Shown here piece after piece: positions 7,596 to 63,139 of a DNA stretch of 64,000 nucleotides. The notes below the pieces were generated by a model. That model did not search any database. It saw nothing but the letters and a program-made list of their open reading frames with translations, and had not been told where the DNA came from. The stretch is taken from assembly GCF_009931435.1 (NCBI RefSeq), contig NZ_CP043414.1; one strand, 5' to 3'. The stretch's first letter is position 1; every line of letters starts with the position of its first letter. The position numbers and the translations under genes were made by a program. This stretch comes from Escherichia coli (lineage in GTDB: Bacteria > Pseudomonadota > Gammaproteobacteria > Enterobacterales > Enterobacteriaceae).

Positions 7596-7796
7596 GTGGA
7601 AAAATATTGTGAGTTAATACGCAAGCGGTACGCGGAAATCGCCAGCGGAGACTTAGGATACGTTCCGGACGCGCTGGGCTGCGTTTTGAAAGTGCTGAAT
7701 GAAATGGCTGCCGACGATGCCCTTTCTGAGGCTGTCAGGGAAAAAGCAGCATACGCTGCGGCAAACTTACTGGTGAGCGATTATGTCAATGAATGA
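7596..7796 (+). CDS. yaeP: Small protein YaeP (UPF0253)
   Basis: 66 codons from GTG at 7596 preceded by AGGAGG (7585-7590); sequence [23 protein letters not shown]... recognised. Confidence 0.85.
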
Positions 7797-18372: not shown

Positions 18373-19160
18373 TAACGAATCAGACCGCGCGTTGAGCGTG
18401 CAAAGAAATCGGTAAAGGCTTTTACTTCCGGATATGTTTCCGCCAGTTCGGCAATTTCCGGTTTCACTTCATCGAGCGTTTTACCGCTGCGATAAATCAG
18501 CTTATACGCATTGCGGATAGCGGTAATCGCCTCACGGCTGAATCCGCGGCGCTTCAGCCCTTCGATGTTGACACCGAACGGCGTTGCGTGGTTACCCTGC
18601 GCAATGACATAAGGAGGGACGTCCTGCGCCACACCGGAACAGCCGCCAACCATCACGTGCGCACCAATGATGCAGAACTGATGGACTGCGGTCATGCCGC
18701 CGATGATCGCGAAGTCGTCTACCGATACATGACCCGCCAGCGTTGCGTTGTTGGCGAGGATGCAGCGGTTACCTACCGTACAATCGTGCGCAATGTGCGC
18801 GTTGATCATCAGTAAGTTGTCGCTGCCCACCTTCGTCAATCCACCGCCCTGGACTGTGCCACGATGAATGGTGACGCTTTCGCGAATGCGGTTACGATCG
18901 CCGATTTCCACACGGGTCGGTTCGCCAGCATATTTAAGATCCTGGTTGACTTCGCCGATGGAGGCGAACTGATAAATCTCATTGTCGCGGCCAATTTTAG
19001 TATGACCATTCACGACAACGTGAGATTTCAGTACGGTACCCTCACCAATTTCGACATGGGGTCCAACGATACAAAAAGGACCAATGTGAGCATTGGCGGC
19101 AATCGATGCGCCCTCTTCCACAATGGCGGTTGGATGCACAAAGGCGGATTTATCAATCAC
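18372..19160 (-). CDS. lpxA: UDP-N-acetylglucosamine acyltransferase
   Basis: 262-aa ORF with hexapeptide (left-handed beta-helix) repeats; recognised LpxA. Confidence 0.96.
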
Positions 19161-19163
19161 GTA

Positions 19164-19619
19164 TCAGGCCTCCCGGCTACGAGCACACATCATCGTTGCT
19201 TCGCAAACTACTTTACCGTCGACCAGAGCAACCCCTTTAAAACGGGTCAGGCCGCGGCGCGTTTTTTCGAAAGTGACTTCCATGATCATTTGATCGCCTG
19301 GCACGACCGGGCGCTTGAAGCGCGCTTCGTCAATACCGGCGAAGTAGTACAGCTCGCCCGGTTCCAGTTTTCCTACGCTCTTAAACGCCAGAATACCTGT
19401 TGCCTGTGCCATTGCTTCCAGAATAAGCACACCCGGGAAAATCGGTTTTCCAGGAAAATGGCCCTGGAAGAATGGCTCATTGACAGAGACATTTTTTACT
19501 GCGCGCAGAAAACGACCTTCTTCAAAATCCAGCACGCGATCCACCAGTAAGAACGGGAAACGGTGCGGCAGAAGTTCTAAAATCTCTTCAATCTGCAGAG
19601 TATGAGTGTTAGTAGTCAA
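19164..19619 (-). CDS. fabZ: 3-hydroxyacyl-ACP dehydratase FabZ
   Basis: 151 codons from TTG at 19619 ([23 protein letters not shown]...) with AGGAAG RBS; ORF track 182-aa form also starts at TTG; no in-frame ATG near N-terminus. Confidence 0.93.
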
Positions 19620-19723
19620 GATACTCTTCCTGTCAAAATATAAGAAACGACAATAATAACACGGCCTGCCGCAATCGTAAGAATGAGACAGGCCGTAAAG
19701 TTTGGCGAACAAAAGATGGAACG

Positions 19724-20749
19724 TTAGTCTTGTTGATTAACCTTGCGCTCAAGCGATTTCAAACGCTTGCTCATGTCATCAATGTTCATCACCAGTGCAG
19801 CGGTTTTGCGCCAGACTTTGTTGGGTTGCAGCGGAATGCCTGAGGAATAGACGCCTGGTTCAGTGATGGGACGCATCACCATACCCATGCCCGTAACCGT
19901 CACTTTGTCGCATATTTCCATATGCCCGTTGATTACGCTGGCTCCGCCGATCATGCAGTAACGACCAATTTTCAGGCTTCCCGCCATAATGACGCCACCG
20001 GCAACCGCCGTATTGTCGCCAATCACGACGTTATGTGCAATCTGGCACTGGTTATCAATGATCACACCATTGCCAATAACAGTGTCATCCAGCGCGCCGC
20101 GATCGATGGTAGTACATGCGCCGATCTCCACGCGATCGCCAATAATTACGCGACCAATCTGCGGGATCTTCACCCAGTTACCCCGATCGTTGGCATAACC
20201 AAAGCCGTCTGCGCCTACCACTGTTCCGGACTGGATCAGGCAATTCTGACCGATCTGGATCTCATGGTAAATGGTTACGTTCGCCCAGAGACGCGAACCT
20301 GCACCTATTTTGCTGTTTTTACCTACGAAGCAACCGGCACCGATAATCACGTTATCGCCCAGTTCAACGCCGGACTCAATCACCGCGTTAGCGCCAATCG
20401 ATACGTTGTTACCCAGCTTCGCCGTCGCGTCGATCACCGCACTGGGTGCAATGTTCTGCGCGGGCTGCGGCGTGGTATCTAAAATTTGCGCCATGCGCGC
20501 GTAAGTCAGGTAGGGGTTCTTCACTACCAGCGCGGCACTTTTCGCGAAAGGAAGATCGTCCTGGGTCATGACAACCGCGGACGCCTGGCACAAGCCTAAA
20601 TGCTCACGGTATTTTGGGTTAACCATGAACGTGATGTGACCTGTTTGTGCAGATTGCATGGACGCAACGCCGGTGATGACGATATCGCCATCACCGTGTA
20701 GTTCTGCATCCAACTGCTGCGCTAAATCAGCCAGTCGAATTGAAGGCAT
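19724..20749 (-). CDS. lpxD: UDP-3-O-(3-hydroxymyristoyl)glucosamine N-acyltransferase
   Basis: 341-aa ORF with hexapeptide repeats; recognised LpxD. Confidence 0.96.
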
Positions 20750-20752
20750 TAC

Positions 20753-21238
20753 TTATTTAACCTGTTTCAGTACGTCAGCAGTGATGTCTTTTACATCGCT
20801 GCTGTTGTAAGCAACGGCGTTTGCATCAACAACCAGATCGATATCCTGGCTGTTGGCAACGGATTTCACAGCAGTCTGGATACGAGTAACCAGTTTGCCG
20901 CGTTCTTCGTTGGAACGACGAGCGCGATCCTGCTCAAAAGCCTGCGCTTTCTGAGCAAAAGTCTGGCGCTGAGCCATCACGTCTTTTTCCAGTTTGGTAC
21001 GATCGCTGCCCGCTTTCATGGACTGCAGCTTTTTCATTTTAGCCTGCAGATCGGTTTCCATACGCTGCAGTTCGCTGGCACGGCCTTTGAACTCATTTTC
21101 CAGCGTGTTAGAAACACCGGTTTTCTGCGCTACCTGCTGGAACAGGCTGCCCATATTGACGATTGCAATTTTGTCAGCCGCCTGAGCAGAAGTTGCCAGT
21201 GCTAAACCGAGACCTGCAGCTAATAACCACTTTTTCAC
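20753..21238 (-). CDS. skp: Periplasmic chaperone Skp (OmpH)
   Basis: 161-aa ORF, signal peptide, Lys/Gln-rich coiled coil; recognised Skp. Confidence 0.96.
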
Positions 21239-25185: not shown

Positions 25186-26043
25186 TTAAAGCGTCCTGAA
25201 TACCAGTAACAACAAGCAAGCAAAGACCGGTACCGCAGCCGTCAGACTATCAATACGATCTAAAATACCACCGTGTCCTGGAATTAAATGACCGCTGTCC
25301 TTAATTCCTGCTTCACGCTTAAACATACTCTCGGTCAGATCGCCGAGCACTGAGGCTAACGCTGCGACAATAGAGCAAATGAGTAAGGTGACGGGAGCGA
25401 CGTCGAGATTCGCCCACATGCCATAACCCCATGAGATTACCGCTGCAGTTGCGAGTCCACCGATAAAGCCTTGCCAGGTTTTACCCGGAGAAACCTTCGG
25501 TGCCAGCTTATGTTTACCAAACAATTTGCCAAACATATATGCGCCAGAGTCAGCGCCCCATACCAGGATCATGACATAGAGCAGCCATATTGCGCCACTG
25601 TAATGATTCTCGTCGTAGTGCCAGGCCCGTAACGCCAGCATGCCCCAGAAGAAGGGAACAATGGTTAGCACGCCAAAAATAATGCGCAATGTTTTAGAGT
25701 TACGCCAGATTGCTGCGGAACCTGGGTAAAACAGCACCAGCAATAGCGCGACAATCCACCAACCCAGCGAAGCCCAAAGTGAGATTTCAACCAGCGGTTG
25801 ATGAATATTTCGGTGATATTCCGGCAACAGAAAAAGCATCAGCGCCAACAATAACCCACATAACACCGCCAACCATACTCGCTGCGAGCGAGTGGTAAAA
25901 CCGCTAAGCTGTCCCCATTCCCACGCTGCCAGCATGCAGACCACCAGCGTTACAATGGCGAACCCCACCGGCGGCAACAGAAACAACGCCGCGATGACGA
26001 CGGGTATTAACACAAAAGCAGATATCAGGCGATACTTCAGCAA
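25186..26043 (-). CDS. cdsA: CDP-diglyceride synthase
   Basis: 285-aa hydrophobic ORF; recognised CdsA. Confidence 0.93.
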
Positions 26044-36598: not shown

Positions 36599-36609
36599 AA
36601 GTATGTACA

Positions 36610-36640
36610 CGGGCAGCACGACGCTGCCCGATTGCTTTCT
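36610..36640 (+). terminator. Intrinsic terminator downstream of dapD
   Basis: Hairpin CGGGCAGCacgacGCTGCCCG followed by ATTGCTTTCT. Confidence 0.6.
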
Positions 36641-36910
36641 GGTTCAGAATAATTCGTCCTACTCATTCTTCTTCCCCTTTTTTAAATACTTTTTCATCTT
36701 GTTTCGGACTGTCATGTAATTCGCAAAACAAAGATAAATGTGCTAATCCATCCCATGGAATATCGCCAGAATAAAGCAGGTAATTTTTTGATTTTTACGC
36801 CATGATAGAAGTCTGGAAGAAAAAGGCTTTCTGCGATCACAGTCGAGCCGGGCGGGCCAGGCCAAATGCTAAAATAAGCACAATTTACTGACTCATTTTG
36901 AGGTAACGCT

Positions 36911-47526: not shown

Positions 47527-49509
47527 TTAACGGCTCTGCTTTCTCAACAAATAGATAAAATACGGCGCGCCGATAAAGGTCGACAGCAGCCCCGCTGGGA
47601 TCTGGAATGGAAACAGCACCATCCGCCCACACCAGTCAGCGAACACCAGCAACAATCCCCCTACCAGCGCCGAAATCACGATGTGCGGCATCGTCCGTCG
47701 AAAGCCCATCATCCGTGCGATATGCGGTGCCATCAGGCCAACAAAACTCAACGGCCCGATGGTCATTGTCGCGGTCGCCGTCAGGCAAGCCGCCAGCAGC
47801 AGTAGCGCAATTCGCGTCGGCGTCAGCGCCATTCCCACGGCTCGTGCGGTATCACCTCCCAGCGGTAAAATGGTCAGCCAGCGGCGGCACAGCGGGGTAA
47901 TCGCCAGCAAAATCACCATCACAATTCCGGTGCGCCAGACCTGCGCCTCGGTCGCGTTGTAGGTCGAACCGGAAATCCAGGTCAGCACTTGCGCCATTCG
48001 CGGGTCACCACTTGCCTGCAACATCATCAAAAGCATGGTGAACGCAGTACTTAAGGCCATCCCCGCCAGTAACATGCGGTGTGGGGAAAATCCACCGCGC
48101 CCGGCAGCGATCATAATGATCAACAGCGTCACCGCCGCGCCGAGACTGCCCGCGGGTAACAGCCAGCCAAAGGCATTACCCGGCACCAGAAACAGCATCA
48201 ACACCACACCAAACGCCGCGCCTGAACTAATCCCCAGCACTTCGGGGCTTGCCATCGGGTTTCCGGTCAGCCGCTGAATAATACAGCCCGCCACTGCCAG
48301 CATGATGCCCGCAAACAGTGCCGCCATAATTCGCGGCCAGCGCCAGGGCATTAAATCATCGAGCAGCGCCCCGCTCGCCCACGTCCAGCCGTGCGCATCA
48401 CGACCAAACGACAGCGCCACCACCACAGCAATTATCAGCAGCACACCGCCAGCAAGGGCAAACGCCAGCACATGTTGGCGTTCAGTCGCGACACGATCGT
48501 TGGCCTTCATATCCGGCGCACTGATGCTGCGTAAACGCGGCAGCAGCCACAGTAACAGCGGCGCACCTATCAACGCCGTCACCGAACCGGTAGAAACTTC
48601 CATCCACACGCGAGTCAGCCAGAGGATGATTTGATCGGAAAGCCAGAGGATCAGCGCACCAATCAGTGACGCCAGCAGCAGTCTTGGCAGCAGACGCCGC
48701 GCCCCCAGCATTTTTGCCAGCAGTGGCGCGAACAACCCGATAAAGCCGATAATCCCCACCGCGTTCACCAACAGAGCACTGATGACTATCGCCAGCGACA
48801 GCGCCGCCAGACGCGCGAGCGATAAGGCCAGCCCGAGATTACGCGCCACGCCATCATCAAGCCCCATCAGGGTTAATGGACGAAGTAGCAGTAACGTCAG
48901 CATCACGCCGCCCAGCAGCTGTGGCCATAAACGCTCAACGCCGCCCCAGTCGGTTTGCGTCAGCGTTCCGGTACTCCACAGGAACATGCTTTGCAGCTGG
49001 TCGTGATGGAAGATAACCAGTAGCTGATTAATTGCCCCACAATAAAGGCTCACCACCAGCCCCGCGAGGATCAGTGTTACCGGCGAAAGCCGTTTCCCCC
49101 ACGCGACGCCAAAGACAATTAAGCCAACAACGCAAGCCCCCGCCAATGCAGCAAACTGGCTCGCCATAGCACCAGGGATCGCCCAGAGCGTGGTGACGGT
49201 AATCCCCAGTTGCGCGCCTGTAGCAACGCCCAACGTCGTCGGCTCCGCCAGCGGGTTACGCAGCACTTGCTGAAATAGCACGCCCACCAGCCCCAGACCC
49301 GCGCCCACCAGCAGCGAAATCGCCAGACGCGGCAGCAAGCTGTAGTGAAAAATCATCTGCTCGATGACATCGATATCCGGCGACCAGGTGGCCTGCACCC
49401 ACTGGCTACGCGGCAGCGCCTGCGAGAAGTTCATCCAGGTTAGCATCGCTGCGGCAATCACCAGCAGCGCCAGCAATAACGCCGGGAAAAGCGCAATACG
49501 TTTACTCAC
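47527..49509 (-). CDS. fhuB: Ferric hydroxamate ABC transporter permease FhuB
   Basis: 660-aa ORF with duplicated permease halves; recognised FhuB. Confidence 0.95.
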   Translation of the reverse strand: MSKRIALFPALLLALLVIAAAMLTWMNFSQALPRSQWVQATWSPDIDVIEQMIFHYSLLPRLAISLLVGAGLGLVGVLFQQVLRNPLAEPTTLGVATGAQLGITVTTLWAIPGAMASQFAALAGACVVGLIVFGVAWGKRLSPVTLILAGLVVSLYCGAINQLLVIFHHDQLQSMFLWSTGTLTQTDWGGVERLWPQLLGGVMLTLLLLRPLTLMGLDDGVARNLGLALSLARLAALSLAIVISALLVNAVGIIGFIGLFAPLLAKMLGARRLLPRLLLASLIGALILWLSDQIILWLTRVWMEVSTGSVTALIGAPLLLWLLPRLRSISAPDMKANDRVATERQHVLAFALAGGVLLIIAVVVALSFGRDAHGWTWASGALLDDLMPWRWPRIMAALFAGIMLAVAGCIIQRLTGNPMASPEVLGISSGAAFGVVLMLFLVPGNAFGWLLPAGSLGAAVTLLIIMIAAGRGGFSPHRMLLAGMALSTAFTMLLMMLQASGDPRMAQVLTWISGSTYNATEAQVWRTGIVMVILLAITPLCRRWLTILPLGGDTARAVGMALTPTRIALLLLAACLTATATMTIGPLSFVGLMAPHIARMMGFRRTMPHIVISALVGGLLLVFADWCGRMVLFPFQIPAGLLSTFIGAPYFIYLLRKQSR

Positions 49510-56333: not shown

Positions 56334-58763
56334 TCATGAATACTTTTTCGTCCGTCGCGTCGGTGCGGTATTTGCCGGATCATCCGGCCAGACGTGTTTG
56401 GGATAACGCCCTTTCATCTCTTTTTGCACCTCGCGATACGCACCTTTCCAGAAGGCGCTCAAATCTCGTGTGATTTGCAGCGGCCTTTGGGCAGGAGAAA
56501 GCAACTCCAGCACCAGCGGCACACGCCCCTGGGCGATCGTCGGATTGGTGGCCTCGCCAAACATCTCCTGCATTCTCACCGCCAGCGCGGGCGGGTTATC
56601 TTCATGGTAACGAATGGCGATCCGGCTCCCCGTCGGCACAGTGTAATGCGCAGGCAATTCACTATCCAGACGTTGCTGCATCCCCCAATCAAGTAATCCG
56701 CGTAGCGCCTGATAAATATCGAGTGATTTCAGGCCGCGTAGCGAATGTACGCCTGCCATATGCGGCAGTAGCCACGTTTCCAGCGTCGCCAACAAACTTG
56801 CATCATCAACCGCTGGCCAGTCATATTCCGGCAACCACTTTGCGGCGCATAACAAACGCAAGCGTAGCTGTTCCGCTTCCGCCGTCCAGTTGAGCACGCT
56901 TAAACCTTTATCACGAATGCCGTTAAGCATTGCCTGATGCAACTCGTCTTCCGAGGGTTTCGCCAGCGGCTGCACTTTCACCGTCAACTGACCGATTTGC
57001 AGCCGACGCCACGCTTTCAGCGTACCTTGCGCATCATCCCACTCCACAGTGTCAGACTGCTGTACCAACTGCGGACAGCGTTGTACTAATTCATCGATAT
57101 CGACCGGTAGCGCCAGTAAAATCCGCGCATCCGGCGAGGCGCTGCCCTGCAATAATAACGGTGCGATCAACCATTCGTGGCGGCTTAGCGCATCGTCGGC
57201 ATCGAGCATTGCCCCCATGCCGTTTGCCAGTTGATAGCGTCCATCTTGCCCACGGCGACGAGCAATGCGATCGGCATACGCCCCGGCAAGTAGCGGCGCG
57301 ATAAGAGAACTGTCTGCCTCACCGCCGCGTACGTTTAAACGTTTTAACAGTTGCTGGCTACGTTGCTGCCAGGCAGGTTGATTGCGCGAAAACGCCACAT
57401 CCAGATCGATATTGCCCATCCGTGGTGGCTCTTCGAGAATAGCGGCAATTTTTGCAGCGGTAGCAGCTTCGTCGTCGCTCCTTGCGCTCACCAGCATTGC
57501 CGCTAAACGCGGATCGTTACCCAGCGTCGCCATTTTCTGCCCTTTCGTGCTTAGCCGTTCACCGTCCATCGCCCCCAGCATCCGTAACAGGCGTTTCGCG
57601 GCCTGTAAATTCACGGCTGGCGGTTGATCCAGCCAGCTCATCTGCGTCGGATCGCTGCATCCCCATTGCAGTAATTCCATCAGCAAACCGGAGAGATCGC
57701 TTTGTAAGATTTCCGGTTCACTTTGCGCGGAGGCGCGTTCTGCTTGTTCTTTGGCGATTAAATGTAAACAGATCCCCGGCTCCAGACGTCCGGCACGCCC
57801 GGCGCGTTGCGTCATTGATGCCTGGCTAATGCGTTGGGTAATCAGCCGCGTTAGCCCCGTGCGCGGATCAAAGCGCGCCACACGTTCCTGAGCACAATCC
57901 ACCACCAGACGAATACCTTCGATGGTTAAACTGGTTTCAGCAATATTGGTTGCCAGCACCACTTTGCGCATCCCTTCTGGTGCCGGAAGGATCGCTTTTC
58001 GCTGATCGTTCAGCGACAACGCGCCATACAGCGGGCAGAGCAACACATCACTACCGATGCGCGAAGCTAGTTGTTCCTGAACGCGCTGAATTTCTCCGAC
58101 ACCAGGTAAAAATAACAGTAATGAGCCGCTTTCCTGATGCAGCAATTCGGCGGTGGCAACCGCCACGGCTTCATCAAAACGCTGATGAGCGAGCAGCGGT
58201 AAATATCGGCGTTCAACCGGAAATGAGCGCCCTTCTGAGATGACGACGGGCGCTTCTGGCAGCATCTGCTGCAAGCGGTCATTGTCCAGCGTAGCCGACA
58301 TAATCAGTAGTTTAAGGTCATCACGCAGACCTTGTTGCACATCGAGTAACAGCGCCAACGCCAGATCCGCCTGCAAGCTGCGCTCATGAAACTCATCGAG
58401 GATCACCAATCCAACGCCGCTCAGTTCAGGGTCACGCTGGATCATGCGCGTCAACACGCCTTCGGTAACTACTTCCAGGCGAGTATTTGGCCCGACACAG
58501 TTTTGCGCGCGCATCCGGTAGCCTACCGTATCACCTGTTTTTTCGTTAAGCAGTTCCGCCAGTCGTTGCGCAACGTTACGCGCCGCCAGGCGACGCGGCT
58601 CCAGCAGGATAATTTTTCCGTTAATGCCGGGATGCGCCAGCAGTTGCAGCGGCAGCCAGGTTGATTTCCCGGCCCCGGTCGGCGCACTTAATAACACCTG
58701 CGGTGCACCATCGAGGGCAGCAAGTAACTCAGGTAAGACGGCGGCAACGGGCAACGACGACAC
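56334..58763 (-). CDS. hrpB: ATP-dependent RNA helicase HrpB (DEAH family)
   Basis: 809 codons from GTG at 58763; Walker A GAGKST and DEFH motif; ORF track 824-aa form starts 15 codons upstream. Confidence 0.9.
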   Translation of the reverse strand: MSSLPVAAVLPELLAALDGAPQVLLSAPTGAGKSTWLPLQLLAHPGINGKIILLEPRRLAARNVAQRLAELLNEKTGDTVGYRMRAQNCVGPNTRLEVVTEGVLTRMIQRDPELSGVGLVILDEFHERSLQADLALALLLDVQQGLRDDLKLLIMSATLDNDRLQQMLPEAPVVISEGRSFPVERRYLPLLAHQRFDEAVAVATAELLHQESGSLLLFLPGVGEIQRVQEQLASRIGSDVLLCPLYGALSLNDQRKAILPAPEGMRKVVLATNIAETSLTIEGIRLVVDCAQERVARFDPRTGLTRLITQRISQASMTQRAGRAGRLEPGICLHLIAKEQAERASAQSEPEILQSDLSGLLMELLQWGCSDPTQMSWLDQPPAVNLQAAKRLLRMLGAMDGERLSTKGQKMATLGNDPRLAAMLVSARSDDEAATAAKIAAILEEPPRMGNIDLDVAFSRNQPAWQQRSQQLLKRLNVRGGEADSSLIAPLLAGAYADRIARRRGQDGRYQLANGMGAMLDADDALSRHEWLIAPLLLQGSASPDARILLALPVDIDELVQRCPQLVQQSDTVEWDDAQGTLKAWRRLQIGQLTVKVQPLAKPSEDELHQAMLNGIRDKGLSVLNWTAEAEQLRLRLLCAAKWLPEYDWPAVDDASLLATLETWLLPHMAGVHSLRGLKSLDIYQALRGLLDWGMQQRLDSELPAHYTVPTGSRIAIRYHEDNPPALAVRMQEMFGEATNPTIAQGRVPLVLELLSPAQRPLQITRDLSAFWKGAYREVQKEMKGRYPKHVWPDDPANTAPTRRTKKYS

Positions 58764-58836
58764 AAAACGCTCCAGAGGGTTAACATTCTTCGCGCCACAT
58801 TGTAGCATCGCGGTAATGCATAACCGAGTACCTCAC

Positions 58837-61741: not shown

Positions 61742-63139
61742 ATTTTTACCCGAGTCGCTAATTTTTGCCGCAAGGTGCTAAGCCGCGAGGAAAGCGAGGC
61801 TGAACAGGCAGTCGCCCGTCCACAGGTGACGGTGATCCCGCGTGAGCAGCATGCTATTTCCCGCAAAGATATCAGTGAAAATGCCCTGAAGGTAATGTAC
61901 AGGCTCAATAAAGCGGGATACGAAGCCTGGCTGGTTGGCGGCGGCGTGCGCGACCTGTTACTTGGCAAAAAGCCGAAAGATTTTGACGTGACTACTAACG
62001 CCACGCCAGAGCAAGTGCGCAAACTGTTCCGTAACTGCCGCCTGGTGGGTCGCCGTTTCCGTCTGGCTCATGTGATGTTTGGCCCGGAGATTATCGAAGT
62101 TGCGACCTTCCGGGGACATCACGAAGGTAACGTCAGCGACCGTACGACCTCCCAACGCGGGCAAAACGGCATGTTGCTGCGCGACAACATTTTCGGTTCC
62201 ATCGAAGAAGACGCCCAGCGCCGCGATTTCACTATTAATAGTCTGTATTACAGCGTGGCAGATTTTACCGTCCGTGATTACGTTGGCGGCATGAAGGATC
62301 TGAAGGACGGCGTTATCCGTCTGATTGGTAACCCGGAAACGCGCTACCGTGAAGATCCGGTACGTATGCTGCGCGCGGTTCGTTTTGCCGCCAAATTGGG
62401 CATGCGCATCAGCCCGGAAACCGCAGAACCGATCCCACGCCTGGCTACCCTGCTGAACGATATTCCTCCTGCACGCCTGTTTGAAGAATCGCTTAAACTG
62501 CTACAAGCGGGCTACGGTTACGAAACCTATAAACTGTTGTGTGAATACCATCTGTTCCAGCCGCTGTTCCCGACCATTACCCGCTACTTTACGGAAAATG
62601 GTGACAGTCCAATGGAGCGGATCATTGAGCAGGTGCTGAAGAATACTGACACGCGTATTCATAACGATATGCGCGTCAACCCGGCGTTCCTGTTTGCCGC
62701 CATGTTCTGGTATCCCCTGCTGGAAACAGCACAGAAAATCGCGCAAGAGAGCGGCCTGACTTATCACGACGCTTTCGCGCTGGCAATGAACGATGTGTTA
62801 GACGAAGCCTGCCGTTCACTGGCGATCCCGAAACGGCTAACCACTTTAACGCGTGATATCTGGCAGTTACAGTTGCGCATGTCCCGCCGTCAGGGTAAAC
62901 GCGCATGGAAATTACTCGAACATCCGAAGTTCCGTGCCGCTTATGACCTGCTGGCACTGCGTGCTGAAGTAGAACGCAACGCCGAGCTACAACGTCTGGC
63001 GAAATGGTGGGGTGAGTTCCAGGTTTCCGCGCCGCCGGACCAAAAAGGGATGCTTAACGAACTGGATGAAGAACCGTCACCGCGTCGTCGTACTCGTCGC
63101 CCGCGCAGACGTGCGCCGCGCCGTGAGGGCACCGCATGA
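61742..63139 (+). CDS. pcnB: Poly(A) polymerase I
   Basis: 465 codons from ATT at 61742 ([12 protein letters not shown]...) with GAGG 6 nt upstream; first in-frame ATG is ~55 codons downstream; nucleotidyltransferase GGxVRD motif ([13 protein letters not shown]). Confidence 0.9.

Follow-up and report, generated by a model that had tools for sequence, protein, structure and literature searches.

A conserved UUG start codon in fabZ of Escherichia coli and other Enterobacterales

Background

The initiator tRNA of bacteria reads UUG as a start and inserts fMet, with an efficiency below that of AUG. Within operons, differential expression is also set by intercistronic stem-loops and partial intrinsic terminators. 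Initiation at GUG and UUG has been placed at 10-100% of that at AUG in reporter assays, and at AUU at 1-2% (bioRxiv 10.1101/063800). Selection on start codons is described as generally weak and favouring AUG (PMC5622118).

A closely comparable case is the TTG start of cdsA (Hikage et al. 2024, PMC11448367). Like fabZ, cdsA is an essential membrane-lipid gene in the same co-directional array, with a Shine-Dalgarno (SD) motif and no nearby ATG. When its TTG is replaced by ATG, induced expression is toxic and lethal (PMC11448367). Unlike the case of fabZ, experiments on cdsA revealed back-up near-cognate codons at positions 2, 6 and 7 (PMC11448367). At fabZ, by contrast, a stop lies only 3-5 codons upstream of the TTG in several species, and FabZ residues 2-8 are conserved. 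The same 2024 study named fabZ, ftsK and yihA as essential genes with a TTG initiation codon (PMC11448367).

The second comparison is with infC and pcnB, the two E. coli genes in which an AUU start has been confirmed (bioRxiv 10.1101/063800). These starts are discriminated by IF3, and fabZ may be likened to them in that a suboptimal start restrains or regulates a dosage-sensitive protein. UUG, however, is one of the three canonical bacterial starts and, at the efficiencies given above, a much stronger codon than AUU. In further contrast to infC and pcnB, we know of no autoregulatory loop for fabZ.

FabZ shares a branch point, R-3-hydroxymyristoyl-ACP, with lipid A synthesis, and its dosage therefore affects the balance of lipopolysaccharide (LPS) and phospholipid. 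A shift of this balance with FabZ dosage and activity has been described (PMC8745692; PMC4651636). An in-genome deep mutational scan of fabZ deliberately excluded the start codon (PMC9842644), our literature search found no experiment in which that codon was altered, and the text of a preprint on start-site profiling by Ribo-RET does not mention fabZ.

Here we describe the start site of fabZ in a 64-kb stretch of the E. coli chromosome that runs from metI to pcnB (hereafter the window), which is in reverse orientation relative to the public record with which it was compared. The start codon is compared across E. coli and the Enterobacterales, together with the hairpin that precedes it and the other non-ATG starts of the window, and the explanations for its persistence are weighed.

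The fabZ start site

A RefSeq/PGAP record whose fabZ segment is 100% identical to that of the window supplied the annotation, each CDS of which was placed on the window by BLAST. The features at the fabZ start are as follows.

19164..19619, minus strand: fabZ coding sequence, 3-hydroxyacyl-ACP dehydratase, 151 codons plus stop (RefSeq annotation mapped at 100% identity; NCBIfam; product identical to PDB 6n3p)
19617..19619, minus strand: TTG (UUG) initiation codon of fabZ, the sole in-frame start backed by an SD
19626..19631, minus strand: SD AGGAAG of fabZ, with a 6-nt spacer to the TTG and an anti-SD duplex dG of -4.3 kcal/mol
19615..19634, minus strand: conserved initiation block of fabZ, positions -15 to +5 (+1 being the T of TTG), GACAGGAAGAGTAT(C/T)TTGAC, with 17/20 positions fully invariant and the other 3 conserved at 95-99%
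19710..19712, minus strand: spurious upstream in-frame TTG, the longest-ORF pick (182-aa product), with no SD and a duplex dG of -0.7

On the minus strand the sequence reads ...GACAGGAAGAGTATC TTG ACT ACT AAC ACT CAT ACT CTG CAG ATT GAA GAG. A preliminary description of the window, made from its letters, had placed the start of fabZ at TTG 19619 behind the ribosome binding site AGGAAG and had stated that no ATG lies in frame near the N-terminus. RefSeq, K-12, the crystallised protein, the family models and the conservation in over 90 species described below all agree with this start. An in-frame ATG is indeed absent from the in-frame stop 39 codons upstream as far as codon +40. The only other NTG upstream in this frame is TTG 19712, with its duplex of -0.7 against -4.3 at TTG 19619.

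Both NCBIfam equivalog models recognise the protein well above their cutoffs. NF000582 scores 207.7 bits (cutoff 113) over model positions 1-136 of 137, and TIGR01750 scores 199.7 bits (cutoff 155.15) over positions 1-140 of 141. The matches set in at residue 39-40 of the 182-residue ORF, which is residue 8-9 of the 151-aa protein, and the 31 residues that the longest ORF adds therefore lie outside the FabZ family. The 1994 paper that defined fabZ is said to have sequenced the N-terminus of the protein, and Edman degradation reportedly gave TTNTHT.... The crystallised E. coli FabZ (PDB 6n3p) has the identical 151-aa sequence, MTTNTHTL..., and fabZ of K-12 (b0180) has the same protein accession, WP_000210739.1, and the same start. 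Over 61 nt, SD and spacer included, the start region of K-12 is identical as well, so that the two do not differ at the start site.

The start at TTG 19619 is thus correct, and it is already annotated and cited. The preliminary description rightly treated it as a known case, given its RefSeq annotation and its naming in PMC11448367, and the assignment itself adds nothing new.

Conservation of the start codon in E. coli and Enterobacterales

Of 5426 complete E. coli genomes, 5423 were matched by a 701-bp query around the fabZ start. An identity of 99% or more was reached in 24 genomes only, and among the matches listed 2 were 100% identical; across this region, which holds fabZ and its flanks, the strain of the window differs from most E. 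coli by 1-5%.

Within the species, 5413 of the 5423 genomes carry exactly the same 61-mer around the start. When the TTG of this 61-mer was replaced by ATG or GTG, neither query had an exact match in any E. coli genome. Outside the species, we compared one genome for each of 80 other species of Enterobacterales (Enterobacteriaceae, Erwiniaceae and Yersiniaceae, from Citrobacter to Serratia, Yersinia, Pantoea and Erwinia), and the aligned fabZ start is TTG in 80/80. A single A>C change, at -8, is the only departure from invariance at the SD positions -12 to -7 in the 81 sequences, and the spacing from the SD to the TTG is conserved, as are FabZ residues 2-8 (TT[DNE]THTL). Position -16 and those beyond it vary among these 81 sequences, as do most third-codon positions. 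Within fabZ only 1 of 58 four-fold degenerate sites is invariant, the one at codon 7; this comparison is indicative rather than a formal test, given the shared phylogeny of the 81 sequences and the less than full neutrality of four-fold sites. The reading frame upstream of the TTG is closed in other species by in-frame stops 5-61 codons away, and in Pantoea and Erwinia the stop is just 5 codons upstream.

Among twelve more divergent loci the start is TTG in nine, ATG in two Morganellaceae and GTG in one lineage. The TTG is kept in Pectobacterium, Leminorella and Limnobaculum, in the old insect endosymbionts Baumannia and Blochmannia, in an endosymbiont-like contig of 19% GC, and in two further lineages with different FabZ N-termini. 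Close upstream of the TTG, at 3-5 codons (3 in two cases), the frame is closed by a stop in several of the divergent lineages, which leaves them no other start. Photorhabdus reads GACAGGAAGAGTATT-TAG-ATG-AGT, the TTG having become a stop with a new ATG 3 nt downstream, and Arsenophonus also starts fabZ with ATG. Since the swap to ATG in Morganellaceae is viable and one lineage has GTG, TTG is not obligatory for fabZ.

The neighbouring genes of the operon differ in their starts. lpxD begins with ATG in 75/75 loci. For lpxA the start is GTG in about 85 of 88 related loci (77 by automated match and 8 by eye), and ATG in one further lineage and in Photorhabdus and Arsenophonus, the Morganellaceae in which fabZ has ATG. 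The locus L090 combines an ATG in lpxA with a TTG in fabZ.

This pattern indicates that the TTG of fabZ, with an initiation region of about 20 nt, is probably under purifying selection across E. coli and almost all Enterobacterales. Selection would here act on a weak codon, because the first base is invariant even though a change from T to A or from T to G would still give a working start. The order-wide fixation of a suboptimal start codon in a dosage-sensitive essential lipid gene is a modest addition to what is known.

The lpxD-fabZ hairpin and nearby RNA elements

The spacer between lpxD and fabZ is 104 nt long and holds two further features.

19662..19695, minus strand: intercistronic hairpin in the lpxD-fabZ spacer, with the base CGGCCUG/CAGGCCG and a 20-nt inner stem-loop (computed fold)
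19632..19661, minus strand: A/U-rich tract from the hairpin to the SD (UGUUAUUAUUG...UAUAUUUUGAC), conserved in its part next to the hairpin

The hairpin ends 42 nt upstream of the TTG. Of 91 loci, 85 carry it, in 72 distinct sequence versions; the medians are 14 bp and -22 kcal/mol. Its 7-bp base is invariant in sequence across the loci. About 15 unrelated sequence classes can be told apart in the inner segment; of its 67 distinct versions, 91% pair better than shuffled copies of themselves (median z -2.7). RNAalifold on a MAFFT alignment recovered the invariant base only, because the upper stems differ in length, and a per-sequence shuffle test was therefore used instead. The GC-rich stem-loop thus appears to be maintained by selection, the upper stem turning over in sequence while its pairing is kept. 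The region has no family in Rfam, where only two chance matches (E of 6-9) were returned, and a literature search found no paper that describes an lpxD-fabZ hairpin.

The element resembles the intercistronic stem-loops and partial terminators of other operons in its GC-rich stem of 10-16 bp, its U-rich tract, its place between cistrons and the retention of pairing. It departs from that class in three respects. The tail that follows the hairpin, UGUUAUUAUUG, is U-rich and conserved, but its U tract is interrupted; the 7-bp base is invariant and shows no covariation; and the essential genes fabZ, lpxA and lpxB lie downstream, so that termination cannot be complete. A simple terminator scan flagged only a 5-bp sub-stem. 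With those genes downstream and only 42 nt between hairpin and TTG, a full terminator can be set aside, and the hairpin is more likely a partial attenuator or an element of mRNA stability or processing. The flank on the 3' side of the hairpin, UGUU(A/G)UU(A/G)(U/A)UG, is conserved, and the A/U-rich tract to which it belongs could help to load ribosomes on the weak start of fabZ.

A promoter scan from the hairpin to the TTG gave none on the strand of fabZ and a single match on the opposite strand, no more than shuffles give. No paper was found that links CsrA or a specific sRNA to control of fabZ through ACAGGAAG. A second hairpin was considered at the start codon itself, where AGAGUAU (-8 to -2) can pair with AUACUCU (+16 to +22) and leave the UUG in the loop. 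In its favour, neither arm varies among the 81 sequences, the sole invariant four-fold site of fabZ is at codon 7, and Blochmannia carries a compensatory G>A / C>U change. The structure is not supported overall, in that two pairs are lost, with no compensation, in Limnobaculum and two likewise in the 'HPL' lineage. It is also weak, at only -4.8 kcal/mol, and the local minimum free energy is no better than that of shuffles.

Other non-ATG starts in the window

The preliminary description had set fabZ beside three genes with GTG starts, frr, yaeP and hrpB, and had spoken of a cluster of non-AUG starts in one operon block. The positions given for frr (28848), yaeP (7596) and hrpB (58763) match the annotation, and with fabZ all 4/4 starts coincide with those of RefSeq/PGAP. 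The four genes named do have non-ATG starts, and the list is incomplete: lpxA, skp, cdsA, fhuB and pcnB were missed. The annotated non-ATG starts other than that of fabZ are the following.

19158..19160, minus strand: GTG start of lpxA, 3 nt beyond the stop of fabZ, SD GGGAGG, dG -10.3
21236..21238, minus strand: GTG start of skp, SD dG -8.7
26041..26043, minus strand: TTG start of cdsA, the subject of an experimental paper (PMC11448367)
28846..28848, minus strand: GTG start of frr, SD AAGGA, with no earlier NTG following the stop that lies 8 codons upstream
7596..7598, plus strand: GTG start of yaeP, SD AGGAGG, dG -10.8, where the ORF list picks GTG 7578
58761..58763, minus strand: GTG start of hrpB, with an in-frame ATG at 58808
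49507..49509, minus strand: GTG start of fhuB
61742..61744, plus strand: ATT start of pcnB

The 57 mapped CDSs of the window start with ATG in 48 cases, GTG in 6, TTG in 2 and ATT in 1. Across the genome E. coli uses 83% AUG, 14% GUG and 3% UUG (bioRxiv 10.1101/063800). The non-ATG share of the window, 9/57 (16%), is thus that of the genome, with P(>=9) = 0.65 at a background of 17%, and for this reason the wording of a cluster fails. Nor do fabZ, frr, yaeP and hrpB form one operon block, since they are spread over 51 kb and two strands. There is no cluster of non-ATG starts beyond chance, and those other than fabZ are ordinary annotated cases.

Explanations for the persistence of the UUG codon

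Our overall account, to which we give a probability of about 0.9, is that FabZ starts at UUG 19619 behind its SD, that the codon and the region of about 20 nt around it are held by purifying selection, likely as a setting of FabZ dosage, and that the other non-ATG starts of the window are ordinary. The SD AGGAAG, 6 nt upstream, would place the 30S subunit on the UUG, which the initiator fMet-tRNA would read as a near-cognate start, so that FabZ would begin with Met. With Thr as residue 2, that Met is probably removed, as the general rules for its excision would have it. We infer that the UUG is likely kept as a means of fixing the rate of FabZ synthesis relative to that of its operon neighbours.

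An error in the annotated start is extremely improbable. The true start would then be TTG 19712 (182 aa), perhaps reached by ribosomes that re-initiate once past the lpxD stop, at a distance of 12 nt, or else a downstream CTG (codon 8), ATT (codon 10) or GTG (codon 26 or 29). The 182-aa product is what a mechanical ORF list gives, and extensions of this kind are carried by 16 of the 120 best FabZ representatives; moreover the family models begin only at residue 8-9, and cdsA can use several downstream near-cognate codons, while non-canonical codons also follow the TTG of fabZ (PMC11448367). Against this, TTG 19712 has no SD and a dG of only -0.7, and the frame upstream is not conserved but closed elsewhere by stops 5-61 codons away, or 3 in two lineages. 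The conservation of residues 2-8 and of the SD-to-TTG spacing, and the 151-aa length of the crystallised form, argue for TTG 19619, and a start at the GTG of codon 26 or 29 would delete the conserved core. With the start at TTG 19619 accepted, the codon might still be selectively neutral, a frozen accident that persists through shared ancestry and through constraint on the neighbouring bases. The retention of the gene after the changes to ATG in Morganellaceae and to GTG in one lineage is compatible with this, as are the generally weak selection on start codons (PMC5622118) and the lack, in our literature search, of an experiment that changed the codon. We consider neutrality unlikely, however, given a first base that does not vary in 5413 E. 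coli genomes or in 80 other species and is kept even in lineages of the age of Blochmannia and Baumannia, while only 1 of 58 four-fold sites is invariant. The change in Morganellaceae, too, is not a simple substitution: the TTG became TAG, the new ATG stands at a distance from the SD that is greater by 3 nt, and ATG is the start of lpxA too in these genomes, which looks like a compensated re-arrangement.

A third explanation moves from the single codon to the group, and treats frr, cdsA, skp, fabZ, lpxA and others as a functional cluster, in which genes for the envelope and for translation would respond jointly to the fidelity of initiation, for instance to the level of IF3 as with infC. Three of the four genes in the skp-lpxD-fabZ-lpxA slice have non-ATG starts (uncorrected P = 0.017), as do 5 of the 14 in the co-directional frr..accA array (P = 0.074 at a background of 17%). 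Deep conservation of the fabZ TTG and the lpxA GTG, with ATG at both in Morganellaceae, would also fit, as would the reported conservation of the cdsA TTG among Gram-negatives (PMC11448367). The only slice with P < 0.05 was, however, chosen after looking, and the window as a whole lies at the background; the four genes first put forward as a group are on two strands over 51 kb, L090 shows that the lpxA and fabZ codons are not strictly coupled, and the literature search yielded no link. This explanation is therefore very unlikely.

A wider version of the dosage account is possible, though doubtful. In it a single selected post-transcriptional unit would comprise the UUG, the initiation block of 20 nt, the conserved hairpin upstream and the A/U-rich tract that follows it, and would set how much FabZ is made in proportion to LpxD and LpxA at the branch point of LPS and phospholipid. 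The fabZ UUG and the lpxA GUG, the start codons of two enzymes in competition for R-3-hydroxymyristoyl-ACP, would be co-evolving. Co-evolution is proposed because both codons became AUG in Morganellaceae. If such a unit exists, a change of fabZ to AUG alone is predicted to unbalance envelope lipid synthesis. Were a chromosomal TTG-to-ATG change to give a lipid-balance phenotype, the choice of start codon would emerge as a stoichiometry setting within the operon; the thinking of the field would stay as it is.

Start calls in ORF lists and databases

The preliminary description had also advised that the starts in the ORF track should not be taken at face value. The ORF list does mis-start fabZ (182 aa), hrpB (824 aa against the annotated 809) and yaeP (72 aa), and the warning extends to public records. 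In 16 of the best 120 cluster representatives FabZ is begun at a spurious start further upstream, so that the TTG appears as an internal leucine, which makes the advice well founded. One of these over-extended entries, of 196 aa from Yersinia enterocolitica, stands for 131 sequences. In four further entries among the best 120 representatives the first residue is given as L. The structure 5bux from Y. pestis was considered as another mis-annotated N-terminal extension and was rejected, the entry consisting of a His tag followed by SMTTDTHTL. fabZ is thus a clean example of the failure of start calls that take the longest ORF or prefer ATG.

For hrpB the preliminary description erred in stating that an ATG start is lacking. 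The ATG at 58808 lies in frame 15 codons upstream of the GTG and has a poor SD. In frr and yaeP the in-frame ATG is found downstream of the GTG, at a distance of 12 and 36 codons respectively.

Conservation and annotation of the fabZ start

Over the 61 nt of the fabZ initiation region, 5413 of 5423 E. coli genomes show no difference from this strain, whereas the 701-bp stretch at 19100-19800 is matched at >=99% in only 24 of the same genomes. The start region is the standout conserved part of 19100-19800, and the scarcity of close matches places this strain in a less common lineage at the locus. Among the 120 best FabZ cluster representatives in the public database, the N-terminus is over-extended in 16 because the TTG was skipped by gene callers. 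The first residue is given as Leu in four further entries.

A different start is used in two Morganellaceae loci. In Photorhabdus (L083, locus positions 386-406) and Arsenophonus (L084, near locus position 401) the fabZ TTG is replaced by TAG, and a new ATG is present 3 nt downstream. FabZ read from this ATG is 150 aa long with the N-terminus MSENHTL. The lpxA start in these loci is ATG rather than GTG. Because both genes start with ATG in Morganellaceae, there is a hint that the fabZ and lpxA start codons change together.

Potential RNA structures at the fabZ start

Features of the lpxD-fabZ spacer and the fabZ start
19662-19695, minus strand: strong hairpin in the lpxD-fabZ spacer
19632-19661, minus strand: U-rich tract next to the hairpin, with conserved UGUUAUUAUUG 3' of the hairpin
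19621-19627, minus strand: AGAGUAU, directly 5' of the TTG, complementary to AUACUCU
19597-19603, minus strand: AUACUCU, codons 6-8 of fabZ, complementary to AGAGUAU

The spacer hairpin was found in 85 of 91 Enterobacterales loci. Its 7-bp base (CGGCCUG/CAGGCCG) is invariant in the loci compared, and the upper stem differs in sequence among genera with the pairing kept. No family for the hairpin is present in Rfam, and a literature search found no paper describing it. A role as an attenuator or in mRNA stability is possible.

The sole invariant four-fold site of fabZ, the third base of codon 7 (19599), lies within AUACUCU. The pairing with AGAGUAU shows a compensatory change in Blochmannia and is disrupted in two other lineages. 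The structure is weak (-4.8 kcal/mol).

Other starts and strain variation

Non-ATG starts and a candidate alternative start in the window
26041-26043, minus strand: TTG start of cdsA
61742-61744, plus strand: ATT start of pcnB
58806-58808, minus strand: in-frame ATG for hrpB, 15 codons before the GTG of the annotation, with a weak SD

The cdsA and pcnB starts were absent from the list of non-ATG starts in the preliminary description. Codons 2, 6 and 7 of cdsA are also usable for initiation, and cdsA with an ATG start is lethal on induction (2024 study, PMC11448367). Only two AUU starts are confirmed in E. coli, pcnB among them (bioRxiv 10.1101/063800). The same list counted hrpB as lacking an ATG start, but an in-frame ATG does lie upstream of its GTG, 29 nt from the start of the divergent thpR, and either codon may be the one used.

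In this strain yaeI is missing between dapD and yaeH (36601-36910). Among complete E. coli genomes, 3338 of 5424 share this contiguous junction without yaeI, and the absence is therefore a common presence/absence polymorphism.
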